From contig CP075496.1 of NCBI GenBank assembly GCA_021613535.1, positions 310,001 through 374,000 on the forward strand: DNA of 64,000 nt. Direction: 5' to 3'. How positions within the stretch are numbered: position 1 is the first letter of the stretch; every line of letters starts with the position of its first letter. The position numbers were made by a program, and so were the translations under genes. The notes beneath the pieces were generated by a model. The model searched no databases, had not been told where the DNA came from, and saw only the letters and a list, made by a program, of their open reading frames with translations. Below, piece by piece: positions 290 through 63,750 of the stretch. This stretch comes from Adineta vaga. Lineage: Eukaryota > Animalia > Rotifera.

Positions 290-342
290 TGTGTGTGGGT
301 GTTAGACAGATGTAGTACCCATACCCACACCCACACCCACCC
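290..342. repeat. Telomere-like (TGTGGG/CCCACA) hairpin element, copy 1; inverted partner at 604-657
   Basis: gtgtgtgggtgttagacagatgtagtacccatacccacacccacaccc; its reverse complement closely matches 612-655 (ggtgtgggtactacatttgtctaatacccacacccacaccc). Confidence 0.7.
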
Positions 343-570
343 AAGGGGAAAAAAGCGGATCCTGGATCCTCAGAGATCCTAGATCTTTTTTCTTCGTTAA
401 TAACTCTGTGGTAGAGAATGGCTACTAGTGCAATCTTAGTAGCAAATCGGACTCATTATATTAATGTAGAGAAAAGAGAAAAAAACGAGTTTTTTCATAT
501 GTTAGGCTCTCTGAGGATCTCTAAAATCCATGAGGATCCCTACGATCCAGGATCCGCTTTTCCCCCTTTG
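342..570. mobile_element. MITE-like element (~230 bp) with terminal inverted repeats and GGATCC sub-repeats
   Basis: Left end caaggggaaaaaagcggatcctggatc and right end gatccaggatccgcttttccccctttg are inverted; no coding capacity; no clear TSD. Confidence 0.65.
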
Positions 571-702
571 CAGTCTCCGTATTCAGTCAGTCAAAATAAA
601 TCATTGAGGATGTTGGTGTGGGTACTACATTTGTCTAATACCCACACCCACACCCTTCTAATTCGAATTTTAATTTAAAACTTTGTACAGATGAAGATCT
701 CA

Positions 703-799
703 ATGAGAATAATTTATTGTAAAACTTTCAACTTTGTACCCATATCTTTGCAGAGGAAGAAGCGTTAGGTCTGAAACTTTCACAATAAACTATTCTCAT
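703..799. repeat. 28-bp imperfect inverted repeat (foldback remnant)
   Basis: atgagaataatttattgtaaaactttca (703-730) vs tgaaactttcacaataaactattctcat (772-799); related sequence recurs near 59259. Confidence 0.55.
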
Positions 800-1331
800 C
801 AAGATCGTCATCTCTACAAAGTTTTAAAGTAAAATTTAAAAATGAGTTTTTTTTACGAACTCTCTTAGAATTTGCATCTATACTATAAACTGTACCCATT
901 GTAAGTTTTGAAGATAAGGTGTTGCGTGAATTCCGTTTATTAATGAACAACAACAAGAGAGAAAGAAACACACGTATATAGATAAGATATAAAGAGAAGA
1001 ACTAGATAGCGCGAAGTGTACGAAAGAGAACGAGATACATGCACGTATATGTATTGGAGAATTCCTTTGTATATGTATAGTGACATGAATAGAGAAAAAC
1101 TCCAATATAAATATTTCGGAATTGTCTACACTAACACCTATCAGAAAAATATGAGCACAGATAGGAGATGTCACCTCAGATGTTTCCCTTGTGCGTATAC
1201 AATACAAGTATAGTGCATGATATGTTTATAAATGTGAATAATTGAATGTTTGTAAAAAGAAATTTAAGAATGTGTTTTCTAATTAGATTTAAATAAATAG
1301 AAATTCACTCAGTAGTTTTTCAAAAGAAGAT

Positions 1332-4300
1332 TTAAGATATAGAACATTCACACGTATTTAAAAGAATGTCTAGATTACGACCGAAGTAGTTCGAGATGAT
1401 TATATCTTGACAATTATCACCATTAAAATCATGAACAATTAGCTTAGTGTCCGGTTCATTATAATACGTTTCAGGTACAAATATGTTTTGTGCTTTAAAA
1501 ATTCCATTTCCATAACCAACTAACACATTTATGTAATCGGTTCGCGCACTAGGAACGAGTATATCTACATGACCATCATTATTTAAATCACCAATAGCGG
1601 GTGGCGTTGTACTAATAATATCAGTTTCTATGAAAAAATCGACATATGCACTTAAAGTTCCGTTACCATATCCAAACAATACACTAATAGCATTTCTACC
1701 TATACAAATGAAAGCAACGTCTAACCATGTGTCTTCGTTAAAGTCGCCAACAATCATTGAAGTTGGATTATAACCACCTCCAGTAAAAAATGTCTTTACA
1801 GGTTGAAAAGTTCCATTTCCATATCCAAGTAATATGCCAACCTGTTTGCTGTAATAATTGATAAAAGTGATGTCTTTATAGTTATCATTATTAAAATCAC
1901 TAACACTAAGCTTCAATGGCCAACTACTAGGTCCAGCCGAAAATCTTGTATATGTTGCAAAACTTCCATCACCATTGTTAAGAAAAACACCAATAGTATT
2001 AGTTCCATAATCATTGACAGCTATATCTAAGTAATTATCATTATTGAAGTCAGTTAATGTAATATCGTTGAATCTCTTAACGTTTTCTCCCGTTAACCGT
2101 ATTAAAACTCTGAATGTTCCATTGCTGACGAGAACATTTACATAATTTTCATAGCCATTGATAAATGCTATGTCGAGTTGATCATCATTGTTAAAATTAC
2201 CCATCGCGAACGTGACTAAATATATATCTGTCGATAAAAGTGTTGTCTGTGCTCCAAAAGTACCATTACCATTCCCAATGAGTATATTTATACTATGATA
2301 TTCGATAAAAACTAGATCGAGAATACTGTCATTATTGAAATCAGTCACCATTGTGAGACGCGGACCATCGCTCCAATTATCTGTACGTATGGCGCTTTTT
2401 TTAAATGTAAATTGACAAGGTGATGCTTAAATAAAGATTCTCTATCTTTAATTTTATTTACTTTAATTTAAAAGAGAATTTAATTTGAAAAATAAATTTA
2501 TATAAAGATGTCATTATTTTCTATGTCAAACTCGAAAGTTAAAGAATTGAATAACTGAATAGTTAATTTCAATTTTCGAGTTTGATACTACTAAATTACG
2601 AAACATATGAGTATTTTTTGTAATTATCTTACTAAATAGATTCTTGTAAAATTTATTTACTAACTTGTTGTCGTAAAAGTTGACATTGTTGTACTTGCTC
2701 TTGTACTTGTTATTATGATCTCATTCACAGTATTTGTCGTATTCATTGAAAAAACTAGAAGAAAAAAACAATTTTTTCAATGATTTTATCTTCTAATTGA
2801 AATAGAACATTTCTCTTAAAGTTCATACCTGTTGAAACAATTTCATTCTTTTGATATCGAGCAAAATAAATAGAAAATATAATAAGAACCAATACAACAA
2901 ACAAAAACAATAAAATTTTGACAGAACATTGAATTGATGTATAAAAATTGTTTCTAATAAACAGAATTATAGATTATTAATCAAATTAATATAAAGAAGA
3001 CATACTGAGATATAACATTTGTTGATGTAGATTCTAAATGAAAAGTACGATTATGAATAATTGTGTTCATAGGTTCAATTGTCGTTATTTCGATTGTACG
3101 AAAAGGTTGAACAGTATTCACTCGTCTCTTTCGATAATGATATATTTTAGCTAAAATTCGAACTATTTGAGGACAAATCCATTTGAGAATAATTGTAAGA
3201 CCACTTTGAATACCAAGTACAAAAGCTATTGCATAAAGTAAATTAAATTGTTGAATATAAGTATATGAACAAAACAAAGGTAAACATTTTTGGAAATATA
3301 ATGAATAATTAATTGATATGATCCATTCTTCAATAAAAAGTTTATCGATAAGTTCATTAATAGTTGTATTAATTGAGAATCGACTTATTGTTGATGTCGA
3401 AAGAGAAGATGAAGAATTTATAGAATTCATATATTGTTCAATAGAATTAATACATAAAGAATCATAAAAACATTCAAGAGTTGATGCATGAAATGATTCA
3501 CTTGGTGTACATCCTATTTTAAGACCTTTAATTAAAAACATTTCAGAAGAATTTATTTTTATAAAATTTGCTTGACTTGTACAATTTTGATACAATGTAC
3601 AGGAACAATTATTATCATAAATCATATCATATGTATATGCAAAATAATCATCAATTTCATTAAAAGGAGCAATATAATCGAAATTTGTTCCATAAGTTGA
3701 TACAATTCTATTTCCATGATTTATACTTCGAACTAAATCGAAAAGACGAGAGAATATTTTAGGAGCATTGGATTTGCTTTGTTCAATCAATGAATTAATA
3801 CGTGTATGAAAAACTATTTCTGTTTGAAGTTTAGTTGTTATAAATAATGAAGAAAGTAATTGATGAATAGAAGTATTTACTGATTTATTAACAAGTTCAC
3901 ATAATCCAGTTAAATATTGTAAATGAGCTGAGAGAAAACGACGATAATCTTTTAGATCATAAATAGAAAGATTAGAAATAAGATTCATTGTAAGATTATT
4001 TCGCCATTCATTCGAAATAAATGTACTTGAACAAATCTTTTATTAATAGAAAAAGAAAAAGAATTTTATCATTTATAATATTCACTTCTTTTTTTACCTG
4101 ATGTAAACGTGATTGAATTGTGACATAATTATCGTATGTTGATGCAATTAATGAACAAGGACATTCTAAATTATTTCCATAATTCCTTTGAAGATCATTG
4201 TATAAACTAAAAGATGGTTTATTGAAAGTTTTCATCATTGTTTCAGGTTGTATGACACTGTATACAGTGAGAATACCGACACCAATAATTAACAAAATAA

Positions 4301-12097: not shown

Positions 12098-12469
12098 TAA
12101 TACGGAATAGAGAAAAAGAGAAAAAAAGTGCATAATATGAGGCGGTCGAGGAAAAGAAAACTCTTTATAAATATTTACTTTTGAATAATGAATCCATATG
12201 GAAAGCGAGAGAACAGATGCGATATGCGATCATTTTAGGAAATGGAATAATAAAGCTAAACAGAAAACTAAAATGAAAGTTGTGAAAAGAAATCTTTACT
12301 GATGAGATTCTAAAAATTAACGCGAATTCTAAATCTGAACAACATAAAATCTTCTAAAATGGTTTAAAATAAATGCGTAAACTTCGGATTTTATCCGAAA
12401 GTTATGTGTACTGAAAAAATTGTATGAGATAGAAGTTATAGGGAAATATCAGTGTTTTTTCAATAACTC

Positions 12470-15216: not shown

Positions 15217-16254
15217 TATAATGGATTAATTAAATTTTAAACGAGAAATATAAGAAAAATATATTTCCAAGCTGAATAATCAAATTGATCTTACTTGAAT
15301 GAGTGAATGAAGGATATATATATATACAATTATATTAAACGACGACAATTATCCCACGAAAAACAAAATTATTCATCGTCAACTAATCTGCGTTTGTATT
15401 GTTAATTATAGAGATAAATGACGTTGATATTTTCATTTATTTTTAGTCATATAGGTGAATACGTATAAAAATTGTTAATAAAAAAAGGAAAATTTTGTAG
15501 AATATTACATACAGGATTAATTTATATACTTTTACTATTATTATCATCATTAAATATAAAGTTTAAAAAAATCATATCAACGTTGTAAGAAAAGACTTTA
15601 TTTTATTATTCTATTTATAGCACGAAATCGACCTTTGCATTGAACACATCAAATCGTCTTTTAGATTTTCATAATATTTCTTCTAGTTATTGTGTGGGTT
15701 CTTATTCATGACGTCATCTCATAAATATTTCATTGGATCTTCAGTTTTATGTCTAAAATGACGTGTAGGTAAGAACGAAAAAAAGAAGCGTATTTTGAAT
15801 ACAAAATCTTGTGATAGTTATTTACTAAATTCCTCATGATTGAGGGTGTGGATGTTTAAGAAAAGAAAAATACTCTCACTTCTCTTCAATGATAAAATTA
15901 GAAAGAAGATCATTCAATAGTTAATTATAGAAACAAGAAAAAATGCTTCATTTTTTGATCTATTTTCTTTCTTTTGAATAATAATTAATTACTGGAAAGC
16001 AGGAAGAACAATATGAATCTTTTTCTAATGATCTATTCTAAAAATAAATTCTTCTTTTCTCCCTGTCGTTCATTGATTCATTGAATGTTCTTAAATTACA
16101 TGTCTGTTGTCACTTTCTATCTGTTAATTTTCATGAAAATCTTTTCTCTTATCATCCCTTCAGTGCTTGTCTTAGGTATTTACGTCATTGACAAATTTAA
16201 AAATAACCTATGATTTCTTTCACATTTATTTAAAATTTCCCCGCATTATATCAA

Positions 16255-17214: not shown

Positions 17215-17291
17215 ATGTGTCGTTATCCACAATATTAACTATATGATTTATATTTCAATAAGAAAACAGTTGTAATTAAATAAAAATCGAT

Positions 17292-17352
17292 ATTGAAAGT
17301 GGGTGTGGGTGATAATAGTAGGTCACTCCCACACCCATACAACACCCTCAAT
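17292..17352. repeat. Telomere-like hairpin element downstream of GPCR
   Basis: attgaaagtgggtgtgggtg-ataatagtaggtcact-cccacacccatacaacaccctcaat. Confidence 0.75.
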
Positions 17353-19399
17353 ATAGTTACGAATCTGATATAATTTTTTAACCAAAGCGTGGTTTTCTAT
17401 CTAAATTTTGCCCGAAAAAAGTCTCAAAATGCGAGAAAAACTGCATTCAGAAACCACGTTGCCTATAGATATGTCTCAAATGACAAGTCGTTTTGAGGTT
17501 TCCTATATGCCTGGCCTTGTAGCTTGTCAAAAGGACTATCAAATGGTAAAAATCTATTCTATATAGTTATCAATATCATTCAGCTATTGTGCAAATACTA
17601 ATGTTTGTATTTATCATATGCTTCTTATAGATTTATAAAGTTGCTTACGAATGTAATCCTGATAGAGAGAAATATAAAAATTTATTGAAAAACGTGTCAT
17701 CGAAAATCGTACTCATCAAAAAGATTTTTCATGGTAATTTTGATGCGCACACATTTCAGCATGACTCATCTCTGTCATACACTTTTTACAGTACACATAA
17801 TCTCTCGGATAAAATTCGAACTTTCCAGATTTATTTTATTTCGATAGTAGACAAGTTAATTCATTAATCAATAATTGTTTTAGAGAGAAAACAGACAAAT
17901 CGTGTTTAAAAAAATGCTTGCATCCCAAACGAGTATCAAGAGTCTTTTATTTGTACCAGAAAAAAATAAGTAGGTCTATTGAGAAGTTTCTTCTCTTGAA
18001 ATAGAATAAATTAGGTGCTGGTAAAGCGCATGAATTATACTTTGTACGTTATTTTCACATGTGGCAAAGCCTGTCCATACCGATATATAATAAACTCATC
18101 AGAGTTTGGTTGTGCGGTGAAAATACCATGAATTGAATGGTAATTATGAGGTGCAGAGGTCAGATTAATATCTGGAGCTGAACATTGTTTTACATTGCCT
18201 AGCAAAACTTTCGTTTGATATAATACACGTTGATTGTCCTTTTCAAGATTGGGAAATGTATTTGAATGTTCATTCTTTGGATTTTGACTAAAGTATGCTC
18301 CATTCCCTAAGGAAAAATTATAAATCTAGTATGAAGGAATAAATATGTACATGATAATTAGATATTGCAAAATAAAATTATTATGGCAAGATATTCATAT
18401 AAGGGTTAATGATAAATGAAATCTCTTTTTCGACGTTTACGACTCTATGCACATATGAGAATCAAAGCTTTGAAGATATTCTTATCGAAATATTTTTTCT
18501 TTGTTAAAAACAGTTTGCTTCAGTCTAAATCATTGAGATCTTCAATATAAGTCAATCAATATTTATTTAATCTATACGAAAACATTTGTGTGATGTTTAA
18601 TTCGACAATTTTCAGCTTCAGATAGGTCATTTTTAGCAAAGAACATATTGACTATTAGTGTAATCTAGATTTTAATAATGATTACTTTCACGTTGTGTTA
18701 GTATTTGTAACGTTATTGTCACACCCATTCTTTTTAATTCTTTTTCTGATCTTACTATCATCTGTATCTTTTTCACGTCTGTTTGTCCTATTCGTATTTT
18801 TCTTTTCATTGCGTATATATAATGCTATTCTTGAGGAGAGGAAGTAAAGGGAAACTTAGTTTCATTAGCAATAAAGTTTGTCCACATCTGGCTTACTTTT
18901 GATTATACTACTATCACTAAGAGTATCGATCAAAATATTATTCGTGTACATTTATCTTATAAGACAGTATCTCTAGACGTTTTTCATATTCTAACAACGT
19001 TATCTTAAACGTTTGAAAACGACTGTACTCTGGTCTCGTAAGATACAAATTTTCATCGTATTTTACTGTAGTTCATTATACCGAAGAAGGAAATTTATGT
19101 AACGAAATAAGTGAAAAGCATTACATCCTTATTTTTGTCCATATTTTGCATTCTGTCCTTATAATTCTTTATTCGTTTCTCCTTTGATGGAAGAGTATAT
19201 AAGTGACTTTTTTGTATGAGAACGATGCGACATATGGTATGAAGAAATAAAGGAAAGTGTAGCACCACACGATCAGCGCTAGTGTCTCTTCTATCTAAAA
19301 TCGTCAATTTAGTGTGCATTGGCAACGTTGGAATATTGCATCATATATTTCACGATATCCTAGTTTATGATCTAGATTGCTACGAAAAGAATTTCTTAC

Positions 19400-19524
19400 C
19401 CCAGTTTCCTTGTCGATAATTCTTTTTATCAAAACCAAAGTCAGCAATTTGGTCAATATCTGCTCCTATAAGAAAATTAATGAATAAATATAAAAGATAA
19501 TCAGATAATTTAATGCGAAGTTTT

Positions 19525-19556
<32 letters not shown>

Positions 19557-22520
19557 GTATTAGTTTACCTATTGTACCGTGATATAGCAGCATTTCATTT
19601 CCGTTTGCTATTGCTGAGTCTTTTTGAATGAATTTTTTAGCTTCTTCATATATTGCTTCCAATGCAGTATTCTTGATTTGTTCAACAGACACAACCTGCA
19701 CAGAATCTGGCGCATAACATGTTCGCATGCGTTGTTCTATTTGACGGTAAATATTGTCTGTTTTTGATAACGCTGTCAGTTCAGCTTTTGCTGGAGCAAC
19801 TACACACGGTGGTACAGGTATAAAAGTTTGAGTAAGTTGTGTCCATCCGCGAGTTATCATCTTCTTTGCTCTTTCGCCAACAAGTTTTCCAGCTGGTTCA
19901 TCATTAATTTCCGCCAACAAACAATAAGAACGTTTTTTAATATTATTCACAATTTTTTCTAGAGTTATGTCATATGGAGACTGAGTAATATCAATGCGCA
20001 TTCCCAAATGTCTTGTGTGATCTTTTTCCACATATAAATTATTTACATCAAAATCAATGCGTTCATAATGAATTGTGCCTACATGTGGTGTGATCAAGTC
20101 AACTATGAAAGGACCTGTCTTGGTATTTTGATCGATTACTAATACATATCGCCATTGATCTCTATGAACGCGAACTGCTATCTGTAGTTTTCCCAGTTCA
20201 GTGACGATTTCATTAACGTCAGACAAGCCATGCGTAGGCAAATAACAATCTAAATCAGCTGGAACTATTTCCGGATGTAAATGTGGTATGGATCCGTTGT
20301 ATACAATCCATTGATCCATAGGCACATTCTTAGGGTACGCTGTGTAACCTCCAACAACCCAGTCCCTTATAAATCCGCCATAAAGTTTACAATCAAATTT
20401 GCAAATCAACAACCAGGCAACAGTGAGCATTCTCTCTTCTCTACTGCCTTTCTGAATTTGTACTTGGTTGAACGGCATTTGTTTGCTATTAGCGATTTGA
20501 GTAATACGTCTTTCGATGTCTTCATAAATATTTTTTGATGCGTGTCCTGTTTTTGATGTCGGGCTAGGTACAAGTATTCTTGGTGGAAGAGCTAAAATTA
20601 AGAACAGTGTACAAATTACAAAACACTAGCAAAACGAGTTTTCATAGGAAAACATTAAAATATAGTGCTTTCTAAATAAATAAAAAATAGCAATGCAATT
20701 ATTCGATAAAGAAACAACATGGGTTCAAATATGTCAAAAATGAATAGCCTATTTGGGTTATCGGAATTTCAGCAATAAAACTTTCGCCAATCGGACATTC
20801 GCACATGGCGAAAGTCTGTACTGCGACATGCATGCTACCCTCAAGTCCACTGTCTATAGATATAGACTACAATTTTCTTGAGAATGTCGATGTGAAAATT
20901 TGTGCGTATTATTGTAACCATATATCTTTTTTTATATTCTCATTCATATCCACACTGTTGAAAGTTGAACCTATTGTTGCAATACGTTTTGCACTATTTC
21001 AAAATATTTTCTTAGGATTATTTTTACCTGCACTAATCTGAATAGCTTCGGCTTTGATGTTGAGAGATTTCTTTTTCCAATTGAGACTTGCATCGAGGTC
21101 ACCTTTCATCGCAGCCATCTGACCCAAGTCATCGTATAAATCGACAAGCAGATGATCATTTGGTGAAAGTTCATCTATCATACGCTGATAGTACTTTTCG
21201 GCTAGATCAAATTTACCCATTTTCCATAAGACTCTTCCAAATAATTGAAGTGTAGCTTTCTTATTTCCATAATCATTTTTCATGTGCTCAATGACTTCTT
21301 TTAAATCATTCTCTTGATCACTGCATAATGTTACTTGAATGTTCCAAATGCCGTTGCTTCCTTGACGAATTTTGTTAAGACGAAAAATCGAACCGAACAT
21401 GAACAACACTTCAAATTCATGTTTGAATGGACTATGAGAGGATACATTAGCAAATGGCTTGCTTGCGACATTATTTGGATTTGCCTCAATCTCAAACAAG
21501 ACTCGTTCTAGATCATGTGGAATACTACTGCCAGTCGAAAATAACAAAGCTTGTTTAGGATCGACGCTTGTAGATAGAAAAGAGTTCATCGATATGAGTT
21601 GATTTACTGACTGCTGTAAAGTTTTCAGTTCATCTTTCGACACCAACTGACCTCGATAGACGCGAATGGTATGCGAACACTGATTTTCTTTCAACTGTTG
21701 ATAAATATCACGGCAGAATGATCGAAGAAGAAAAAGTATATGGATGTCCTGTACACGAAAAGCTTTGTTTAATATTTTATACAGGAAACATTCACGAGTA
21801 TACCATTGTAATGCCTTGGTAGGCGAATAACTCTGCTCATATTCGGCTAATATGCTTAACTCCAAATCGTTTCCTTTATACTGAGTTTTACAAAGATCAA
21901 TCAACTCTTTTTTATCTTTTTCAGTAACCTTCAATCTGAGCAAGACATCCATGAGCACTTGCCAATGAACGAACTGACCATTTAGACTGACTGCTGACTT
22001 GTCTTTTTTTGTTTTATCAAAGAAAAAGATTTCGAACGACAGAAAATTTGCCAATTTCAGTCGATTCTGTTGATCAGCTGTTACTTGGGAAACAAGAACA
22101 CTTAGCTCAGTTATAACTGCTTTTACCTGAAAAAAAGTATGAAAAATTGATATCATAGATTATATGTCAAACTTTGTAGAACTTTTTAGCCCAAGTATTA
22201 TGCAAAGTTTCGTCCATACAATACACATAAATATCCGAAATTTGTGGAATATGATGAATGCGCGGTATTTCATGCTGACCCAAACTACCACTTATAATAA
22301 GTACCAGATAATAGCCTGGAGTGACCTGCTTGATATAGTTGCGAAACTCATCTGGATCATCGAATGTCTTGAGATAATTGATGGCTGCACGAAGTTTTTT
22401 CTGTGTCTCTTGATTATCCTTGGTTTTATAAACATTCAAATCTAACCAAATAAGACTAAATGCTTCAAGATTTTTGTCAGCAGTGCCAAATCCAGTTTTT
22501 GAGACAACTGACTTAGCCAT
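19400..22520 (-). CDS. Multidomain fusion: REC-like domain - mono-ADP-ribosyltransferase - TPR - class II (CCA/poly(A)-polymerase-like) nucleotidyltransferase - truncated PARP catalytic domain
   Basis: Exon 22173-22520 (LIWLD...IISGSLG...IYVYC); exon ~21028-22126 (ART motifs YRG, FLSTS, EFE, then TPRs); a phase-1 junction joins it in frame to the exon starting ~20591, which runs into ORF 19510-20478 (GGFIRD, DLD, RIDFDVNNL; then VEQIKN, LYHGT); exon ~19400-19465 (GFDKKNYRQGNWG). No downstream GxYFA exon found. Confidence 0.75.
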
Positions 22521-22900
22521 AATCGTTGAATCAGATTGTTGCAAGCGGCAAACGAATTATTTCCCGATAAACTTACTGTGAAATGTATTTGGCAAATACC
22601 AACAAATCTGAAATATATATATGGGTTCCTTATCTAGTGCAAATATTCTGTTCTTCGCGAAAAAAAGATTTAGAAAACATAAAGTCTTTTTTTTTATTTG
22701 CTTACAGCTACTTGAGTTTACGCACTTCACTGATACAGGTTCGTTGAAAAGGAATGCAAAAACAAAAGGTCTTATTTTATATAATGTATCATAAAGTGAT
22801 TTTGAGATTCAAGAACTCCAACCTAAGATTAGCTTCTTTTAAATTGTATAAAGAAATGTCTTGATGGTAGGGTGAATGTACAATGTCTCAGAGAAAGAAG

Positions 22901-23009
22901 ATGTGGGTGAGAGTATTCTGTTATACGTGACTCACACCCATATCCACACCCACACCCACACCCTCAAGATGTGAATGTGGGTGATAGTAGTATGTCACAC
23001 CCACACACC
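22901..23009. repeat. Two adjacent telomere-like hairpin elements
   Basis: atgtgggtga...ctcacacccatatccacacccacacccacaccctcaag followed by gtgggtgatagtagtatgtcacacccacac; the second spacer resembles the 17311 spacer. Confidence 0.75.
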
Positions 23010-23753
23010 AAAAGAGAAAAGTAAATTGTTAGATGATAATAAATTTCTTTTTCTTTTAATATACAATAAATATAAATAAAAAGGTATTGCAAATATAAAT
23101 GATAAAATGAATGCTTTGATAAATTGAATATTTTCAATATCTTGTAAATTCAATTGATCATCATAAAAATATGTAAATATATTCATTTGAAATAAACAAA
23201 TTGTAATAAAAGGTATTTTAAAACTTAAATTATATTTTGAATAACAAAATGATATGATAAGAATTGTTGTTAATGGTAAAGATATATTATAAGTAAATAA
23301 AAGATAATTATATGAACTTTCTAAATACCAATATAATGAATGAAAGAAATAAGGAATTAAATATAAAACACAAATCATATCTTGTTGAAATAAAGTTAAA
23401 ATAAAAATGAAAAATGCAATTAAATGATGTAAAAATGTATTAAAACTAAGTAAAAATTTATTTGTATAAATCATTTCTATAAAATATAATATACTATTAC
23501 TTATTAAAACAAAATTAAATTGAAAAATAGCTAAATGTTTAGAATATTGAGTTGATGGAAGAATTTTTTTTACTTTTATACAATAACAAATACAAATTAG
23601 AATTTCAATAAACCAAAATTGATTGAAAATATAATAAATATTTGGAATAAAACCATCTAAATCTTTAGATATTTCAATCCATATAAAGAATAGTTTGAAA
23701 TAGAAATAACTTCTTTCAAATATCATCGATATTTCTTCATAGATATTCATCAA
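22995..23753 (-). CDS. Polytopic membrane protein, possibly TLC (TRAM/LAG1/CLN8)-like
   Basis: 252-aa ORF with ~6-7 hydrophobic helices and an FLHHL motif; its last codons and stop lie within the hairpin repeat. Confidence 0.55.
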   Translation of the reverse strand: MMNIYEEISMIFERSYFYFKLFFIWIEISKDLDGFIPNIYYIFNQFWFIEILICICYCIKVKKILPSTQYSKHLAIFQFNFVLISNSILYFIEMIYTNKFLLSFNTFLHHLIAFFIFILTLFQQDMICVLYLIPYFFHSLYWYLESSYNYLLFTYNISLPLTTILIISFCYSKYNLSFKIPFITICLFQMNIFTYFYDDQLNLQDIENIQFIKAFILSFIFAIPFYLYLLYIKRKRNLLSSNNLLFSFGVWV

Positions 23754-24525: not shown

Positions 24526-26430
24526 TTTGATAGTTTCTTAAATTTATTTATATTTATAAAAATTAGAATTAAATTACATTAATCTGTTATAATATTCAAA
24601 GAAATCTTGACTACACTTCACAAATCTTTATATCTCAGATGTTCTGAATTATTATATTTATTTTAACTAATTTTCATTATCATATAAAGTAATAAAAGAA
24701 GAGAAACTTACATATCGTTTGATTCTATTGACTTATAATTCTTCTTTACAGATGTGTATATTTATTAGTATAGTAATTGTAAAAGATTAATAACTACGAT
24801 GAATATAGTTAAATAAAACATAGTTACTACTTGCCATCTCTATATAAAGATTTTAGATACTATCAAAACATTATAATGCCTTTCAGTGCATACTGATAAC
24901 AAAATAATACAATAATATGTAGAATAGATGTTAAGAATAACATTTAATGAAAATGTGAATCTGATAAGAACAAATATACGATGTGAACTATTTTATGCTA
25001 AAGATAGAATTTAATGAGAATATTAATATAGTAATGGTAGATATGATATATGAAATATCACGACACAACGAAAGGTAACACTCAGGCATATAACAACAAA
25101 GAAAATGATGAGATGAAATCTATAATGCCTCAAAATACACCTTTTAAAAAAATATAAGAAACTGTATAGGGCTCAACGTTTCTCAAATACGAGATGGGTG
25201 TGACTACGTGTAGGTAATGATGTTAGTATAATTTCTTTCACCATGCACACCCACACCCAAAAGTATTGAACGATCTTTTATTGACAATATTTAAGAGAAT
25301 TTTATCAGATAGATAATTTAATATATCGATATTTTGAATAATATAAATAATCTTGATCAGAATCAAGTTCTCATTCTTCTCTTGTACATTACGTATATAA
25401 GTATGATAATATGAAGCATCAACGCATGTTTTACATGTAATTAAACCATGATTACTTAAAATCACTACATCTTTATCTCCTAAATCACGTACAATACGTT
25501 TATGTTACCTAGATGAATTATATTTCCATTAAAATCAAATTTGACTATGATAATGCAGTAATTTCACGATAACTCAAATTAAATGGATTAATTAATAGAT
25601 ATTATTTACCATTTGGTCAATTCAATTCGTATTTTTTGTTTATCAATACTAAAATTACTGAAGAGATCATCATCTATTACTCGTGATCATGATATATTGT
25701 TATTTTTATTCTTTTGTGAATAATTTTCATCGTTTGAAAAGAAAAATAACATTATATGACGATTTTTAGTAGAAGAGATATATACGTTAATGGAACTACG
25801 CCTTAATTTAGTTCTTCCAATCATAAATCGCATCTTTTACATAGAAAAACACGCAGTTATATATGTGCAACCAAAAGAAAGAGAACGAAAAGAACAAATG
25901 TACGAGAAAAAGAGAAGAACCAAGAAAAATAAATAGAACGATATCGTCCCAGATATCTTTACACATTAGTTAAGCGTCGATTATTTTCGTGGCTTGATAG
26001 ATTAAAGTATGTATATAGTTTTTCTTTACTGTAAAAAAGATAGAAGTAGGGAAAGTGAAAATATCACTAAACTATGATTTATCTGTTTACTAACGAATTC
26101 TATTTCAATCAATTGAAGTTAATCGATTTAGTAGATAAAAAAGATAACGTTTGCTATGTAAATGACAACAACAACAACAACAACAGTTTTTTATTTTGAT
26201 TCTTTTTTCAAATTTAACATTAACGACTAAATATAAGTTTTAAAATCTATTGTAACACAAAATTATCTCAAACCCATGACATATAGGTCGATGTTGTACA
26301 CGTATCTTTTCTTTTTACAGAAGTAATGAAGTGAAATCTTATTCTACCTACTATATCGTCGGTTGCTGAGTCTAATAAAATTTCGTTTCAGTTTATTTTA
26401 TTTTTTTGTAGACAAGTTGTTGTAAACGAA

Positions 26431-35100: not shown

Positions 35101-35489
35101 CAATAGATGTTAATAAAGACACATATGATGATTTAATAGTTACTAATTATGGTCATAATACTATTAGTATATTACTTAACGATCGAAATGGAACATTTTC
35201 TAATAGAAATACTTTTACAGTTGGTAGATATCCATCTTCTGTAGTAGCATCTGATTTTAATAACGATCAATATACGGATTTAGCAGTTGCTAACAGTGGT
35301 AGTAATAGCGTAAGTTTATTGTTAGGTAATGGTGATGGTACATTTCAATCTCAAATTAAATATACTACTGGAATCTTTCCAACTTCTATTAAAACAGGCG
35401 ATTTAAATAACGACCAAAGACCAGATCTTATTGTAACAAATGGCAAATCGAACGATGCATATATTTTTTTGAACAAATGTAAAAACTAA
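32142..35489 (+). CDS. Receptor-like type II membrane protein: N-terminal arginine-type mono-ADP-ribosyltransferase - TM - ~13 FG-GAP/VCBS repeats
   Basis: Exons 32142-33090, 33147-33171, 33237-33355 and 33415-35489 join in frame (phases 1, 2, 1); ART triad WRG / FSSCT / EDE; TM WKKRF-TIPIVFLIILFIGGIILGAVLG; FG-GAP repeats DFNxDxxxDLAV. Confidence 0.88.
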
Positions 35490-35718
35490 TCTTGGATGTG
35501 GGTTTGCATGTCTTTGTCCTCTTCACTCACACTCGCTAATTTGTTTATCATTTGCTGTAAGATAGAAATGTTCCAAGACGAATGTTTATGTTTTATTTTC
35601 AAAGAAAAACTACTTATGCACACTACATTTGAAAACAAAAACGAAAAAGAAAGTAAAGAAGATCCATATAAATGAGATGAATAAAGTCAGCTAAATTGAA
35701 AGATATGTGTATACCAAA

Positions 35719-37599: not shown

Positions 37600-37652
37600 C
37601 CATCTTGAAGGTGTGGGCGTGTTTCTCTTGTTAACCCACACCCTTAAGATGG
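37600..37652. repeat. Telomere-like hairpin element
   Basis: ccatcttgaaggtgtggg / cccacacccttaagatgg: 18-bp arms with 2 mismatches and a 17-nt loop. Confidence 0.8.
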
Positions 37653-48450: not shown

Positions 48451-49290
48451 CTCTAGAGTAATGATATCAATTATACAAGTATTAATGACAAACGAGTGAC
48501 GTCATATATCCCGCAGAATACGCATCTTTCGTCTCCAAACAAAAATGAACGTATTATAGTTTTTCCCTCTATTTAAATTGAACAGCTGCATTCCGATGAA
48601 AAGAACGTGTGATCATTGACCTTCTACCAGAGCCGTCACCTACACGCTTCGGTTTTTGACCATTTTGAACTGAATCTTTCTGCAAAATAGAATGTTAACT
48701 TTGTATTTTTTCTTTTAATCTCATTTTCGAAAAAAAAAACAATGCAAATCAAAATTTTTCACTACGCCTTATTTTATGGATTCTGGCCCACAAAAACGCC
48801 TATTGTCGTTTAACACTTTCACAATTCAGATTCTACTCGTTATTACAAACAAAAAACTATTTCTTTGTTTGTTATTGTGGGAATATAACTTGTCTTTTAT
48901 TAAAAATCTAAAACTATAATCTTATGTTATCTTTGTGATTATACTGGAAACCTACACATATTTTATTTTTCTCGTTGGTACTATAGGTACCGTCATTATC
49001 TATTATCAAGTTACAGAAGAAACCCTAACAAAAAACTGAATGAAAACCAAATTTTGACAACATATATATTAATTTATACAAGCAATATCAATCTACTCTT
49101 ATTAGCTCATGTACTCAAATTGCAGCTCCATACAAAAAGTTTCTTACATATTGTTCGATGTTATTTTATTTAATTCAAAAGTATTGATCTTTATTTAGAA
49201 AGGATAGATATTCCAAATTTAGCGTCACCTACGACTGTCTCTATGACATTAGCAGATCTTTGTCGTTTTTCTGTTGAAATTGTTACGGAT

Positions 49291-49358
49291 TCTTGAGAGT
49301 GTGAGTGAGATATGGATGTATCAGAAATATAATCGTTCGAATGTTGACACTCTCAAGA
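49291..49358. repeat. Telomere-like hairpin element with the same substitution in both arms
   Basis: tcttgagagtgt ... acactctcaaga, perfect 12-bp arms. Confidence 0.7.
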
Positions 49359-49794
49359 TACACTTATATTGATATATTTAATTAATTTCAATTACAGCTA
49401 AATATTTCTCAGTGTAACACATTTAACATCTTTAATTGTGTAATACAATTTATTTCTTACTCTTTATTTTTTATTATTACATAACTTATTTTAATTCAGA
49501 AAATTGTTCGAAATGGAAATAAATTTCTTATTTAATTAATCATTAACATATGATTCAAATCTCAGTTCAATAAAAGTCTCATATAAACTGCTCATATTGA
49601 TAATTTCATAAATATAGAGAGTTTTTTTTTATAGAGAATTACTTTGTTTTAGTAGATAATTCAACAAAGTCATGCGAAGTTTAATGTATAGCTGTTAAAT
49701 TACTCGATATATATAATCACAAAAAAAACATTTGTATAACATCAAATACTAAGACATCAGTATAATCCAATGAAATAATACAAGATATTCACGT

Positions 49795-50799: not shown

Positions 50800-52705
50800 A
50801 ATTTTGATAGATCTTAATGAATAGATATTGTACAATTCGTATTTTATCTCTTCTCCTCTGTTTATCTATAAAATATATAAACATGTACACATTGAAAAGA
50901 AAAGAATAAAAGTCAAGGCTATCGAGATCATAGTGATAACTGACGAGATGTTTTTTTAAAAGAGATATAATAATGCAGAATGATAGTGAACTAATAAAAA
51001 GTAACATTTAGTAACATAAGAGAAATGTACAAAGTATTTTCTAATCTGTCAACAAAGTTTTATCTACAATTCACTTTTTATTTTTGATGCATTTCCAATG
51101 GAATAATCTGTCGTTGAAAAGTGCTTTCATTTAATAAAATTGGAATATAATTTCTTGATGACGACAATATCTAACAAAAAGAATGTTAATCATTCTAAAT
51201 CTTATGAAAAAGTACATGAAAAATTTAGTTTTTAGATAAAAAGAGGTTAATATACTTTTGAAAAGGCTATTTGAGAGATTCTCGTAAATCTATATAAGTT
51301 ATTAATTGAAAAATGTAAAAAATTTATATAATATCTTATCAAAATAATATAGATTCGAAAATGAAATTATCTATAAAAAATAATTGAAAATAAAGTCCAG
51401 CTAATTGTATCGTTGAGATATTATTATATCTTATAAGAAAGTTTCAGTCTTATTTTATTTCTAAATATGATAACAAATGTTATATTTATCTTATATTTGA
51501 ACAATTAACTATTTTCAATGTACATATAATGTCTTGAGAAAAAACTGAAGAGATTATATTATTTACTTGTTCTATAAAAGATATTCTTTTTAAAATTTAT
51601 TATAGTAATACAGCTGTGATATTTTTGAGTTTATTCTCAAGAGAAGAACACGATTGAATTCTATATTATATATTAGAACTTATAAAATACCATGTCTAAC
51701 TAATTTTTTTCAAAAGAAAAGTAAATTTGACTAAAGTAAATCATGATCAAATATACTTTCACGATTAATGAGAAGAAATTTTCTTTCTGACAACTTTTTT
51801 TACTGTTAATAAATTAATCTATTTTATTTCTTTCATTTTTGACGTTTTTCAAATATGTTTTCTGTAGGTGAGTTACTGAATTAGATAATAAAAAAAACTT
51901 TCACAAGTTGTAAACATACTTAGATACGTCAAAAGATATAATTTGAATTCTAATATCAGAGATTCATTTGTAAATGACAAGTTATATATACTTAACTATA
52001 GTTACTTTATTTAGATTTTGTTTTTGAGTAAAACCAATTTTTAATCAAGTATTTGTAAAGTACTATATTCTTTAACAAGTATTTTTCTCGAGCATATATA
52101 ATTATAAGAGATTTAATCAACATTTCTATATTTTATCTAAACTCAAGAAAAAGATTACAATAAGCTTAAAAAATAAAAGAGTTGACGTGATGAAATTATC
52201 AGTAAGAAATAAGTACAAAAATTAAATGTCATTTCTATTCCTGAAAGAAAGGATTATTGATACTAAGAAAAATTTCTTTTCGTTCATTCCTTCAAAGTCA
52301 ATCAAATTACAGCTGTACCCTTACGCATATCATTGAAAATATCGTTTTTGTAGAATATTGTTGATATACAAACACTCTTGTGTACTGTCAATTGTTTTTC
52401 GTTATAATCTCTTTATTAGTATCATTTGGAAAAGATTTAACGATGTTTACATCTTTTTACAATTGTTTTATAAGAAACAATATCGTATAAATTTATTCTA
52501 ATACAAAATGTTAGGCAATGTTCATTGAATTAAACTGATAGTATCAAATATTTTATTGATACTTGATGTTTTAGAAAAATAGTTTTTAAATTCAATTTCA
52601 ATAAGATATGAAAGATTGATAAGAATCGAAAATAAAGTGAGATGAATAAATGATCAATATCAGGGTGTGGGTGAAGGTATCTCTTTCGATTCGATCATAT
52701 CCTAC

Positions 52706-53693
52706 GATGTTTAATACATTAGAAATTTATATTCAATTTGAAAATCTTTTTGATATTTATTTATATTAAAGATCAAAATTATCTAAATGCTCAACGATGG
52801 GAACAAATTATTCAAAGAAATTTATCACAATTAGAAGAATTTTATATGACATATATAACCAATTTTCATAAGACTCGTCAGTTATCTTCATATTCAAATG
52901 AACTAAATCAATTTTTTTCTCCATTTTGGCTTCAACGAGAATGGATATTAGAAATTGAAATTGAATGTGTTAAAATAACTTATTTCATTCATCCATATAA
53001 GTATGACAAAAAGAAAGAAAAATGAAAATTTTCTATTTAAAATTCTTTATTTAGAAAACGATGGTTTGAAAACAACGAACAAAAGAAAGTTCAACATTCT
53101 ATTGAAGAATTATCAAAATCTATGCAATTTAGTTTAAGTATTGTATCTCCAGAAAAATGGTATTCAACATTAACTATTCATGATTATATCAAACAAACTC
53201 AATCTGCCATGAAAATTGACCAACTTCATATTCGTTCAAAAATATTTGTTGTTAAATTAATTGAAATTTTAGAATCATTACCTAAACTTGATGCATTAAA
53301 ACTTTCTACGGTATCATTTTTGGATCCAAGAAAAGTAAAACGAGATGAATTAATACATATATTTAGTTTAAAAAATCAAATACTTATTACTAAACTTTAT
53401 CTTGGAAAGATAAGTCAAATTCAAGATATTTATACTTATTTCTTACAATTTGTCCTTTCATTAAACAACTTGAAATCAATCATTTACGTAAGATGAAAAT
53501 AAAATTATTTCTACGATTATTATTAATACAAATTAGAAATCGATCAAGATTTCAAAATTTTCGATTATTATGTATTCGATATCCAACAGTTGATGATAAA
53601 ATGATATTAAAATTAAAACAAATGATACAAGATGAAAATTTACTTGTTGATTTTACGATAAAACGTCTTATAGATAAAGTTTATGTAGAATGA
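52706..53693 (+). pseudogene. 5'-truncated, frameshifted C-terminal fragment of an F-box/LRR-type gene
   Basis: YLNAQRWEQII..LEEF, FWLQREW and HPY motifs; intron ~53001-53054; frameshift near 53440; no N-terminal part; begins just after a telomere-like motif at 52662. Confidence 0.6.
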
Positions 53694-55010
53694 AAATAAA
53701 TTAATTGTTTATAGAGAAATAATTCTATAGAGATGTTTGAAATAAATATTTACACGAGAAAAACCTCTTGTGTGTGATGATTTCTAAATACGACACAAAA
53801 TATTAATAAAAAAGAATGAACACATTGCTTTGTACAACCTTTTTCCTTTTGTCTGGAACATTTATGTCGTTGAAACAGCGTCTTTTTGCGTTGTACAATC
53901 GATACAAAAATGGGTAATAAACTTTAGTTTATTTCATTCTGTGCGAAATTTAGTAACGGATGCATATGATATTTAAGGTGTGGATGTAGTTGATGAATAT
54001 TTCGTATAAGCTTTAACACACATAACACTAAAATATAATGACTAAGTATGTATATATAAACAGATATGAGTAGATAAGGATGTGAGTGTGCATCTATGTT
54101 TTCTTGATTTGAGATGAAATCCAGCTCTACACTTATTTTCACATTTATCAACTTGAGAGAAAAGACTAGTAATGAGTACTGCTCCGATCGAAATGAAATT
54201 ACACGTATTGCATGATCTCGAAAATAGTTAATTACTCGAATGTAGGAGAAAAAAACATAATTGAACCTTCATTATAAGACATAAAAATAGCTGTATGATA
54301 CAAATAGAGATAATTTGTTTTCTATTACGTTTATTTTAATGAGAGAAAATGTTAGTCTTTTGAGTCTTTCAATTATCATATATATTAGCTCGTTTTACAA
54401 AAATGCTTTAACACTTTTTTTTGAAAACTAAGTTTTTGTATGTTTTTATATTTTTAGTTGATTGTCGTAGCCAAGGAAATACACTCCAATGCTATTGGAT
54501 AAAGTTATATTTCAAAAAAATCAATCTAATCATGTAAACATCAAAAACAAATACCGAACTATATAATTATAATTTGAAAGATAATGCCTTACATATACGA
54601 AAATAACTTTCATCTAGTAATATACTGGTTGATACCATAGGAAGTAAAAGTTTTTCGACAGAATGAAGCGAATAAATTTTAGATATTTCTCATATCATTA
54701 AATGTGTTTTGTTGGTTACCATAGTTCAAAAACTTGATTATTTTATTTTCTCATTTTAATAGATTATAACGCAAAACTATGATTTATTATTCTTGTAGTG
54801 ATCAATTCGAGGTCATCCGCTTACGTTATTCTCTATGATTTCTTTATCTTTTCTTTAACCACCTCGTCAGTTATCACTGTGATTTCGATAGCCTTGACTT
54901 TTATTCTTTTCTTTTCAATGTGTACATGTTTATATATTTTATAGATAAACAGAGGAGAAGAGATAAAATACGAATTGTACAATATCTATTCATTAAGATC
55001 TATCAAAATT

Positions 55011-56015: not shown

Positions 56016-56377
56016 ATGTAAATATCTTGTATTATTTCATTGAATTATACTGATGTCTTAGTATTTGATGTTGTACAAATGTTTTCTTGTGATTATATAT
56101 ATCGAGTAATTTAACAGCTATATATTAAACTTCGCATGACTTTGTTGAGTTGTCTACTAAAACAAAGTAATTCTCTATAAAAAAAACTCTTTATATTTAT
56201 GAAATTATCAATATGAGCAGTTTATAGTCCATTGTCAATGGTAGAATTAATAATGATCTAAATATATATTTATGTTTATCCTTTATTTCATATAAACTAT
56301 GTTAATTTCTTCAATATTAAAAAAAAGCAGTTTTAGAATTGAATAAAGAAATGTAAATGTTCATATAATTGATTGTT

Positions 56378-58696: not shown

Positions 58697-58943
58697 ATAT
58701 ATATATATATACGGAAGTTTCATGAAACAGTTTGATGACCTTAGCTATTACATAATCACCTGGGTGAAATTTCACCCACGTCCCCCACCCCCACCCCCAG
58801 CCTTGATGACCATGCCAACTCCCTGCTGACCTTTCTTGGGAGCTAAGCTACCACTATGGAAAGTTTGGTGACGCTAGCTATAACAGAGACTGAATGCATA
58901 GTGAACAGATAGACAGACAAGCATTCTTCTTTATATATATAGA
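58697..58943 (-). mobile_element. Possible non-autonomous Helitron-like insertion
   Basis: GC-richer island bounded by (TA)n; the minus strand begins tctatatatataaag...gtctgtctatctgt. Confidence 0.35.
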
Positions 58944-59781
58944 AGAAAGATAGATTGTCCGGTGACGGCCTGCTTCTGACCCACACTTACACTCTCAAGA
59001 TTAATGTACATGTTTTATACCCAATTTTATCCACTCACATTTTATTTACCACAAAAAGAGGAGAAACTTATTTATGAATTTCGACTTGAAATTTTGAACA
59101 GGTATAAATCTTAACAGCAGTTGTTTGTTGTAAAAGTGTCGGCTCTTTTCTTTCACTCTACACTGATATAAAAACATCGCGTTTATTTATCTATTGAGGT
59201 AATATGAAGTGTTTTTTAACTGTAGCTGTATCACAGTACAGGAAGAACGAAAAAAGCTGAAACTTTCACAATAAACTGTTCTTGTGAGCACTTTCATTCG
59301 TATAATTTCAAGTCAAAATTCATAAAAAGGTTTCCCTACCTTTCTTGAGAATCATCACGGTATTCTGTATAAAAATTTTCCACTTTTCTGATATACACCT
59401 CCTCTGGAGGTCTAAGAAGGTTTCAAACCTCTATTTGGAACGAATATACCAAATAATTTCTAAGTCTATAGGTTTTGAGGGTGGGCATTTGGTTGTGGGT
59501 AAACAAAAGATACTCAAAACATCCTCAACATAGAAGAAAATAATTTTTTGCTTAAAAAATCGAATTGTCAATAATAAATGATGTTTCGACCGTTTTTCAT
59601 TCGATAGAAAAACTTTTTCAACGCGTAGAAACGTGTTTTTTTTCTCATTGCTTATCTAACTGGGTACATACAATATGAGGTTGGAAAGCAATCCTTTATC
59701 GATTTTTCGGTGAATTTTAGGAGCTCTATTTTGAGATAGAAGTGGCAAACTCATACATTTGGTGTCTCAAGAGAATAGTGC

Positions 59782-60840: not shown

Positions 60841-62055
60841 ACACAAAAAATGTCATACCTATCCAAAAAGGCGATATTTTGTCTTGAGGGTGTTGGCGTA
60901 TTTAAAGATTACACATGCACCAAATCCGAATTTCATTTGAGAAGTCGAGTTTGAAGCCTTTCCACCGAGCCAAGAGGACTGAAATCAGTCGAATATAAAA
61001 ATTGATGATAAATATATGAGTAATCTTTCTTTAGTTGCGCACTGATCCTCTTGATCTTCGCTTAATATCAATTGTGAAACTTCGTCACAGATCAGAATGA
61101 TTATTTTATATTCGTTTCATACTTTGCTTTTGCACAATTTTACATAGATTTAACTTTGCATTTTGTATATAACTATCATAAAACAATTATCTCGTATGCA
61201 TCATATGAGATTCTGAAATACTCTTTTTCTTGAATATAATCAAATTTTTATTTGAATAAAAAAGAATTATTTTCTTGTAACATAATTATGTAGAATATAT
61301 TATGAAAGTTTTTTTATAGTTTTTAAAATGAGCAATATTAAGAATAAAAACAATATATACTTCTCTTTTTAACTTTGTAAAAAATAGAAAATGAAAAAAG
61401 AAAGGAAGAGAAACCATCATCATTTTTTTATGATAGTAGATAAAAGATGCAAATATAATAAAAGAAAGTGTGTCGTGTTTTGAGGGTGCGGGTGTGGACA
61501 TAGGTTTTTGATGGAATAATGGGCTGGATTGTGGCTGAGAGTGAGGGTGGATGGCTGTAGGTGTTGGTGGTGTATTTACAACTGAATCTCATCGACAGGC
61601 ATATGCACATCCACGTCCTCAACTTTAGGAATAGATTGCAAAGGGAAAATAATTTTCTGTTTTCGACAGTCGAAGGTCAAGTGAGTCGAAACGACGAACG
61701 TTACTTGTTTCTTGTATAGCAGTTTGATGTTGATTTTTGAAATAGATCGCAGTTAAATCATCAATCGGCGAGTAAATTTATTCTGAAAGACAATTTTGTC
61801 CTAACAAAATATATATTCCATTCTATTCTATTCGAAATAATATAGACTCACTAGATCACTGTTACAACGACAAGTGAATATAATTTTGAACTACTATCAT
61901 CGACGAAAAAATCAGCCGGTTTGTTTAAAACGAAGTGAAGATAATTAATTTTTTGATCTTGAGTCACCGGTGGCTTACGTCCGACTAAATATCTTACATA
62001 ATATTTTACAATATGATTTCAAGTATAGGACCTGTATTTAATGAATCCTTTGTTC

Positions 62056-62386: not shown

Positions 62387-62803
62387 TTAAATAAATTTGT
62401 ATTTTAACCATCTAATTATAAAGTAAACAATCATTATGTAGAATAATACGATTAAGATAGCAAACCAACAAGCTGTTTTCTTCTTTTTCGTCGTCGTATT
62501 TATTTGTTCTCGAGCTTTTTCTCTACATTCTTCTAAAATATTCTTTGGTATTAATTTGATTGATAATAAAATTAATAATGGAACAAGAATAAGATCATCT
62601 AAATAGCCAAGAATGGGAATAAAATCTGGTATTAAATCGATTGGACTTAACAAGTATCCAAGTGTTATTATGATTGATAGTTTAGCATACCATGGTGTTT
62701 GTTGATGTCGATAAACATAAGTTAATGTATAACTTTCAAGTTTTATTATTTGTACTTTTGCCTTCAAATTTTCAATTAATGATTTATACTTTCCACGATA
62801 CAT
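62387..62803 (-). CDS. YkvA / DUF1232 family membrane protein (bacterial-type)
   Basis: TPWYAK...YLLSPIDLIPDFIPILGYLDD signature; intronless. Confidence 0.88.
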   Translation of the reverse strand: MYRGKYKSLIENLKAKVQIIKLESYTLTYVYRHQQTPWYAKLSIIITLGYLLSPIDLIPDFIPILGYLDDLILVPLLILLSIKLIPKNILEECREKAREQINTTTKKKKTACWFAILIVLFYIMIVYFIIRWLKYKFI

Positions 62804-63123
62804 CGATAGTTAGTCTCTACCTTCTTGTTTCATTACTTTCTTGTGTACGTATTAACGAAATAAAAAACACATGTCGTTTTTAAACAGGGAAAAAATATGA
62901 TCATTCCACATATCTACTCCACTAGTTTAGTATAGATCATAGATCAAGAGAAAAAAAATGTCAAATCATCTCGTTCAGCCAATGAAGAGATGATTGAAAG
63001 AGATGGCGTTAGGCGATGAATGTAAAGAAATGTGTTGTTTGCAATAGGAAAACATCGTACCTGGTATTTCTTGAATTGATAAATGAAGGTTTGTAAATAC
63101 AATAAATAGAGACTATCTTCAGA

Positions 63124-63162
63124 TTGGGTGTGGGTGTCGTTATTCTCTTCACCCACACCCAA
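63124..63162. repeat. Telomere-like hairpin element, perfect 13-bp arms
   Basis: ttgggtgtgggtg-tcgttattctctt-cacccacacccaa. Confidence 0.85.
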
Positions 63163-63571
63163 ATAATCGTTTAACTCAACTTGAAGGTTTAACAAAAGTT
63201 TATTCCTTATCACTTTATAAAAATTAATTCATTGAAATTCCAATTCTGACAACAACTGAAGCAATTCGTCGACTTGATATGAATTACAATCCAGTAAACA
63301 CATTTCTTATGCTCTATTTTTCAAGAATATAACAGAAATCAGAATTTCTCAATCGAAAATCCCCGTTATTCCTTCACACATAGGTCTACTTGAAAAACTC
63401 TCATTTTTGGATTTATCTCATATACAAATAACTCGTGTACCAAGAAGTCTCTTGAATTTACCTTATCTTCAATATTTGGCTGTTCAAAATAATCCAATTT
63501 CTAAAGAAGAAGTTGATTCATTTAAAACAGATTTAATCAATCGACAATCAAAGATTAATTTACTCATCTAA
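63162..63571 (+). pseudogene. Leucine-rich-repeat gene fragment with a stop and a frameshift
   Basis: NNRLTQLEGL..., LDMNYNP, IPSHIGLLEKLSFLDLSHIQITRVP, LPYLQYLAVQNNPI; in-frame TAA near 63225. Confidence 0.7.
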
Positions 63572-63690
63572 TTTATTTTTTATTTTTTTATTCATTTTAT
63601 AATGAGAATATCAATAAAAGTTCATTGATTAAACGTCTGTTTCTAAATCTGAAAAGATTAACACTACAGAGACAAATTACAAAATGAATA

Positions 63691-63750
63691 GAGTGTGGAT
63701 GTCATTATTCTCTTTGTCCATACCGCCACCACCCACACCCACACCCTCAA
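63691..63750. repeat. Telomere-like hairpin element downstream of the LRR fragment
   Basis: gagtgtggatgtcattattctcttt...cacccacacccacaccctcaa; spacer related to that of the 63124 copy. Confidence 0.7.

Follow-up and report, generated by a model that had tools for sequence, protein, structure and literature searches.

How bdelloid rotifers rejoin chromosomes shattered by drying, and how foreign genes enter their genomes, are open questions. A 64-kb window of Adineta vaga DNA (contig CP075496.1, positions 310,001 to 374,000; "the window" is this whole stretch, which is what we analysed) adds a narrower one: why are its genes interspersed with short hairpins whose arms consist of telomere repeats? 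The window is eukaryotic DNA of 30% GC, and its genes include ART, FG-GAP, G-protein-coupled receptor (GPCR) and TPR genes and a long interspersed nuclear element (LINE). The 21 hairpin sites curated by hand comprise 16 hairpins, two clear half sites, one probable half site and two doubtful decayed copies, giving a density of about 300 sites per Mb. We propose that the hairpins are probably scars of DNA breaks, the 3' ends of which were briefly extended by telomerase and then joined, and that the family is most likely new as a variant of short interstitial telomeric sequences (ITS).

The core GGGTGTGGG occurs 15 times in the window, against 0.02 occurrences expected from an order-2 Markov model, and 24 clusters of strict 9-nt cores (at most one mismatch) were found, compared with a mean of 1.66 in 100 shuffles. 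Where two strict cores lay no more than 80 nt apart, the G-rich core preceded the C-rich one in six pairs and followed it in none, while the 100 shuffles yielded no pairs at all; this polarity supports two capped ends facing each other. A site starts with the 7-nt leader ATCTTGA, which may be absent, and continues with GGG(TGTGGG)n, a spacer and (CCCACA)m. Read from outside inward, an arm is ATCTTGA + GGG + (TGTGGG)n, and its outer end reaches ATCTTGAGGG / CCCTCAAGAT. A preliminary description of this DNA had identified the arms with the bdelloid telomere hexamer, which holds: TGTGGG (A. vaga) and TGAGGG (Philodina roseola) are confirmed as telomere repeats by supplementary file 10 of PMC7943196, and the available sections of PMC8494291 agree with both motifs. 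All 18 positions that it had listed as copies or half-copies bear at least one arm. Three of them are not fully two-armed: 52662 has only a G arm (what looks like its C arm belongs to the native coding sequence of the F-box gene), 58980 has only a C arm, and the C arm at 60883 is at most very weak. No copy in the window fits the consensus that had been given for both arms, and the exact 15-mer is found only at 22953 and 63736. Three sites are additional to the earlier list, namely 58760 and the doubtful decayed copies at 53969 and 54077. The sites are as follows.

289..340, hairpin E1: G arm at 289-301, 15-nt spacer, leaderless C arm of about four hexamers; adjoins the end of a miniature inverted-repeat transposable element (MITE).
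341..580 (right end approximate), MITE separating E1 from E2, its inverted ends rich in GGATCC, recognised from its sequence; no target duplication seen.
600..662, hairpin E2: spacer is an inverted copy of the E1 spacer (14/15).
15837..15893, hairpin E3: C arm decayed; placed between the starts of a GDPD and a GPCR gene.
17290..17354, hairpin E4 (H1): both arms with leader; 14-nt spacer common to E6; the GPCR stop lies 76 nt before it.
22858..22970, hairpin E5: the long G tract is degenerate and has a leader; the spacer measures 15 nt and the C arm, whose leader is perfect, 41 nt.
22970..23015, hairpin E6 (H3): directly adjoins E5.
25194..25263, hairpin E7: G tract degenerate.
29449..29510, hairpin E8: in a predicted 161-nt intron (29516-29356, minus strand) of a Thr-rich/CBM gene, as read from the DNA letters.
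35489..35535, hairpin E9: leader and FG-GAP stop codon overlap.
37600..37652, hairpin E10: CCATCTT in both arms, the longest leader; DNA fold z -5.4.
49290..49359, hairpin E11: both arms carry GAGAG.
52659..52673, plus strand, half site E12: G arm only; a 5'-truncated F-box gene begins 6 nt on.
53969..54140, two decayed, doubtful copies (53969 and 54077).
58760..58810, hairpin E15: 6-nt spacer; CCCCCA variants in the C arm.
58979..59001, plus strand, half site E16: a C arm whose leader is perfect, with no G arm in the vicinity.
59472..59531, hairpin E17.
60881..60920, E18: G arm with leader, 41 nt past the ART stop; C arm weak or absent.
61477..61625, hairpin E19: degenerate 93-nt G tract (about 15 hexamers); C arm decayed.
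63115..63160, hairpin E20: spacer at 63136-63149; leaderless C arm shares 2 nt with the Pro163 codon.
63684..63753, hairpin E21: spacer repeats that of E20 (13/14).

The leader is genuine yet optional, as at least six of its seven letters are present in 6 of 32 unbiased core clusters, against 0.10 expected. Its conservation ends at the A, forming a sharp outer edge in an alignment of 43 arms that is biased upward by best placement and includes a few arms afterwards judged spurious. Tracts vary in length from 11 to 93 nt, i.e. about 2 to 15 hexamers. Spacers range from 6 to 43 nt, with 8 of the 20 curated ones at 14-17 nt; this set includes 52662, which proved to have no spacer, and the longer spacers may conceal decayed repeats. 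In a comparison of 13 elements, arms from the same element showed no greater similarity to each other than arms taken from different elements did (p 0.22 and 0.34). There is no arm-to-arm covariation, and the same change that had been noticed in both arms at 49291 is present but is not evidence of pairing.

Sequencing reads were compared for 14001-23950, which holds four copies, using four runs. Over the arm at 22930-22970 the summed read depth was 1015 and 2527, compared with about 15-20 alongside, and among the matches listed 44 and 43 contigs in the two DNA runs end at 22967-22971 with unrelated flanks; the arm is therefore a genome-wide repeat, and the family is dispersed as had been supposed. 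Longer (CCCACA)n runs occur at other loci in the reads, and a metagenome contig (L001) contains one perfect hairpin copy.

What, then, lies at the edges of these arms? Three coding sequences end at an arm, two of them in the window:

63159..63571, plus strand, LRR pseudogene fragment equivalent to residues 163-299 of 299-aa Adineta proteins.
52680..53696, plus strand, F-box/LRR gene fragment equivalent to residues 455-775 of A. steineri P0022.

The LRR homology begins at 63159, within the final 2 nt of the leaderless C arm of E20, and residues 1-162 were not found in the window, the E20 spacer aside. This spacer (63136-63149) reads as S-L-S-L codons plus one extra base, and these are the four residues that precede Pro163 in A. 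vaga P0007; the probability of a chance match is 0.002 for P0007 and 0.007 for any homolog residue. In the homologs, the protein sequence runs on through spacer and flank (a comparison of proteins, not of orthologous DNA). That the spacer might be the target duplication of a telomere-ended transposon was considered and rejected for E20, where it runs into the interior of the flanked segment. The F-box homology begins 6 nt past the lone G arm of E12, and residues 1-454 (P0022 numbering) were not found in the window; the spliced gene at 52771-53690 shows 100% identity over the aligned part to A. vaga I4U23_017236 (P0021). The third sequence is the LINE reverse transcriptase (RT) of L001, which corresponds to residues 507-652 of P0124 (62%) and stops exactly where the leader begins, on its first base. 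From 51 homologs, a profile was built of the 110 RT residues that should follow; it found nothing in L001 and detected the RT of the window at 4e-26. Three related metagenome RT fragments (P0025, P0121 and P0122) stop 40 codons earlier and continue with DTHTLKI, the translation of C arm plus leader, a hint only, read from protein.

The C arm of E1 (317-340) adjoins the MITE end, again without target duplication. Flanks are non-collinear at three of the four sites that can be read from coding context, and at the hairpins no direct repeat of the kind left by target-site duplication was found beyond a possible AT. An inserted MITE should give collinear flanks and a foreign interior, whereas capped and joined ends predict the junctions observed at the LRR gene, the F-box gene, L001 and E1.

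Three of the 190 possible spacer pairs are alike, and all of these are neighbours (322, 565 and 5672 nt apart; p up to 7e-4 each, uncorrected), one pair being inverted (289/604) and two direct (17290/22970 and 63115/63690). The pair at 17290/22970, i.e. E4 and E6, encloses a single gene:

17236..22987, segment bounded by E4 and E6: 5.7 kb, read depth roughly halved, bypassed by one contig in each of the two DNA runs.
18035..22523 (start approximate), minus strand, single spliced ART-TPR-DUF5769-PARP-like gene, by Pfam and spliced joints.

The open reading frames (ORFs) of this segment are one gene, since spliced joints at 18305-19399 and 20591-21028 were seen in two further runs. The stretches 17187-19517 and 19569-22969 are represented by single contigs without differences, at depths of 15 and 20 versus 27-33 in the GDPD gene. 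An alternative contig, present in both DNA runs and known by the sides of its joint only, starts at node 17187, departs at 17235 and rejoins at 22988 within the E6 spacer. One haplotype apparently is without exactly this one gene, between two same-spacer hairpins. Together with the three coding sequences cut at an arm, this fits the recombination or repair sites suggested in the preliminary description, the interpretation of which is partly supported overall. Further high-depth repeats lie in the segment at 17433-17755 and 19189-19278, and a 170-nt skip was seen in both DNA runs. Just beyond it, the C arm of E6 provides the final codons and the stop of a membrane-protein ORF; the C-terminus of this gene (22995) is highly variable compared with five homologs.

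The G-arm-first polarity, the variable tract length, the truncation at arms and the one spacer whose letters read as host codons running on into its right flank are directly visible, and from them we infer the following course of events. An end with a short G/T match would prime inside the RNA template of telomerase and receive a leaderless arm; at other ends, priming would be shifted by about 7 nt towards the 3' end of the RNA, the first letters copied being ATCTTGA-GGG and the first unit TGAGGG. On this view the leader is likely a copy of the RNA immediately 3' of the template, and its motif is predicted to occur in rotifer telomerase RNA; no description of this RNA was found in the literature. 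The first unit, TGAGGG, equals the main P. roseola repeat, which might fit an alignment region keeping that form, although this is speculation. After 2-15 repeats, the capped end would be ligated to a partner end. The recessed 3' end of the partner may also be extended, so that its 5' overhang of about 14 nt becomes the spacer; a staggered break of this kind would explain a host-derived spacer between two arms. Extension of only one end would leave a half site. Existing scars may re-break or replicate as free ends, copying a spacer to both sides of a captured segment, a step that we compare with the "breakage-replication/fusion" of PMC12807874 (accessible part), and re-breaking could let whole genes be gained or lost between copies.

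Several observations weigh against such telomerase-patched joining. The copy at 29455 (E8) has collinear flanks within its predicted intron. The test of a native spacer comes from one site and requires a 1-nt insertion, and an E20-type spacer recurs at 63701 with no LRR sequence after it. A leader of at least six letters is missing at the strict anchor in 26 of 32 core clusters, and its sharp edge together with the AT at many outer ends is as expected of a terminal inverted repeat (TIR) with AT target duplication. Same-spacer neighbours, one pair of them inverted, equally fit local hopping of a small transposon. As for the 5.7-kb segment, the alternative contig does not depart inside E4 but 55 nt ahead of it. 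Moreover, the spacers of E4 and E6 differ at 2 of 14 positions, which is above the nearby allelic divergence (about 1-2%), so that insertion of the segment and its late loss between old repeats are equally likely. Finally, telomerase and an Athena-type RT are not distinguished by these data.

Part of this evidence belongs to an alternative that we consider unlikely, namely that the hairpins are a very small non-autonomous MITE, prone to local hopping and adjacent deletions, whose TIR is CTTGAGGG(TGTGGG)n and whose target duplication is AT (or TA). It would account for the fixed leader with its sharp edge, for at least 43-44 contigs per DNA run that end at 22967-22971 with unrelated flanks, for the AT common to the E5/E6 tandem, for same-spacer neighbours in both orientations and for the collinear intronic copy at 29455; terminal inverted repeats are also present, though the arms are unequal and half sites exist. 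However, 187 of 190 spacer pairs are unrelated and one spacer reads as host codons, arms within an element are unequal and do not covary, leaderless arms and half sites occur, and there is neither a common interior nor a uniform size (3/190 spacers alike; tracts of 11-93 nt). The flanks are non-collinear at three of the four sites with coding context, with no target duplication beyond a possible AT, and we could not uphold the earlier suggestion of a mini-MITE. The TIR elements of the window have ends unlike the hairpin arms.

It is rather improbable that the same scars were written by the RT of an endonuclease-deficient Penelope-like (Athena/Terminon) element copying a small RNA with a telomere-complementary end. 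A non-telomeric leader would be expected from the RNA of an element, but the reiterated tracts of 2-15 hexamers suggest template translocation, which is established for telomerase. In addition, no arm in the window carries longer element sequence, and no Athena-type ORF was found among the window ORFs scanned (42 + 11). On the other hand, according to the accessible parts of the respective papers, such elements use 3' ends exposed at telomeres or breaks as primers (PMC3846280), and A. vaga lines show telomeric repeats and Athena fragments where new deletions have their breakpoints (PMC13564844).

The position of the hairpins relative to genes bears on whether they are selected cis-elements, be it RNA hairpins at 3' ends, putative binding sites of telomere proteins or recombination sites of the attC kind by which gene cassettes are delimited. 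The distances to stop codons for which the preliminary description had singled out five copies are 76, 0, 0, 41 and 113 nt (at 17292, 22969, 35494, 60883 and 63691). With hand-drawn gene models, and with E5 and E6 merged, a stop codon precedes 5 of 20 sites by no more than 150 nt (2.0 expected, p about 0.04) and three sites by no more than 50 nt (0.7 expected, p about 0.03), and none of 20 lies within 150 nt of a start. Moreover, 11 of 18 intergenic gaps hold a copy, and two copies flank a whole gene that one haplotype apparently lacks. The enrichment near gene 3' ends exists in the window but is weak, and survival bias would account for it if breaks just past a stop, which leave the gene intact, are tolerated. 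Against selection, copies decay without paired changes and lie at pseudogene breakpoints, and several fold no better than shuffles (4/11 with z above -1.5). Rfam gave no matches, CTRR was not enriched after the hairpins as it would be at a Helitron 3' end (4/19 versus a background of 0.23), and no recombinase or RAYT family (tyrosine recombinase or HUH) was found among the 53 window ORF scans (42 + 11). Selected cis-elements are very unlikely, and the 3' RNA hairpin and the REP/attC membership once proposed for the family are not supported by these data.

If the hairpins are repair scars, past breaks are recorded in the genome densely and in readable form, and repair is a routine task of telomerase, one that is undescribed at this scale. 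The leader would be a direct handle on rotifer telomerase RNA. A bolder proposal, which we offer as a tentative possibility, is that bdelloids use telomerase as a routine germline end joiner. Each of the two ends of a staggered break would receive a few repeats, in many cases headed by a fixed leader that comes from telomerase RNA (predicted CACCCACACCC-UCAAGAU). The junctions, thousands in number, would serve as universal adapters; by breaking again and duplicating their spacers they would let single genes, foreign ones included, come or go like cassettes.

Other elements share the window with the hairpins. The GDPD (14095-15213), weak NPP1-like (35719-36951), alpha/beta hydrolase (37996-38877) and DUF1232 (62387-62809) genes are likely candidates for horizontal acquisition. 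A GPCR gene forms an inverted duplication (49582-50953 and 54857-56226, 97.5% identity over 1372 nt), the ends of which are not at hairpins. Mobile elements include a DNA transposon at 44601-48197 with inverted ends of about 170 nt, 29-nt subterminal repeats and a broken ORF without a Pfam match, presumably MULE-like; a near full-length LINE at 39747-44502 (CCHC ORF1, APE and RT) with a frameshift between endonuclease and RT; and a decayed TIR element at 10871-12104 with 42-nt inverted ends. Three more MITE-like palindromes (666-836, 6213-6373 and 59063-59334) are unrelated to the telomere-repeat hairpins.

Among known systems, MITEs of the Tc1/mariner, PIF/ISL2EU and Foldback types are short dispersed inverted repeats with a fixed outer motif. 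The A. vaga hairpins differ from them in having no common interior, unequal arms, non-collinear flanks at truncated genes and a host-derived spacer. Bacterial REP/REPIN and integron attC sites likewise have inverted arms, a variable centre and an intergenic position; the hairpins described here, in contrast, lie in an animal genome, have telomere-repeat arms and are accompanied by no RAYT or integrase that we could see. A GTDB scan returned 35 bacterial hairpins, which, unlike those of A. vaga, have GC-rich perfect stems, and no Y1 transposase was found in 16 neighbouring ORFs from 10 loci. Repeated GC-rich perfect hairpins with TGAGGGTGTGG arms, REP-like in appearance, were seen in Oscillochloris (L032, L033, L036, L043, L047, L051 and L060) and in Vacuolonema (L034, L049/L050, L052 and L062). 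Scans of viral sequences gave 25, 1 and 2 loci, none of them AT-rich with a second rotifer-type arm.

In the literature, of which our coverage was partial, with two key papers outside it, no description of a dispersed two-armed telomere-repeat family in bdelloids was found, and the family may stand in Repbase or Dfam as an unclassified repeat. The accessible parts of PMC2861651, PMC3846280 and PMC10088271 mention short telomeric stretches or Athena priming, not the two-armed structure, and those of PMC5388398 and PMC12133305 add nothing on hairpins. Closer parallels are neotelomeres, which are described from A. vaga lines (PMC13564844) and, along with telomere-spanning fusions, from cancer genomes (PMC11293586). 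There, as far as the accessible parts of both papers go, new repeats are added at breakpoints with 0-3 nt of microhomology and are later fused, as proposed here. Neotelomeres and their fusions are, however, somatic or transient, hundreds to thousands of bases long and mostly one-sided, whereas the A. vaga hairpins are germline-fixed, 11-93 nt long and two-sided.

The closest relatives are short ITS. In the window, the tract is the species' own telomere repeat in an internal position, and several of the sites lie at rearrangement junctions, one intronic copy being collinear. In the accessible part of Sola et al. 2021 (PMC8537989), vertebrate short ITS and TERC-ITS are short telomere tracts at repaired breaks, the latter with a fragment of the telomerase RNA sequence in the same orientation before the repeats. 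At one Xenopus "type C" locus, head-to-head repeats are even preceded by the part of the RNA sequence that lies immediately downstream of the template. Head-to-head tracts are rare there (3 of 41 loci, attributed to a second telomerase), while in the A. vaga window, at about 300 sites per Mb, they are the rule. What further distinguishes the hairpins from TERC-ITS is their fixed 7-nt leader, which would likewise derive from RNA, a spacer near 14-17 nt and the duplication of spacers around genes.

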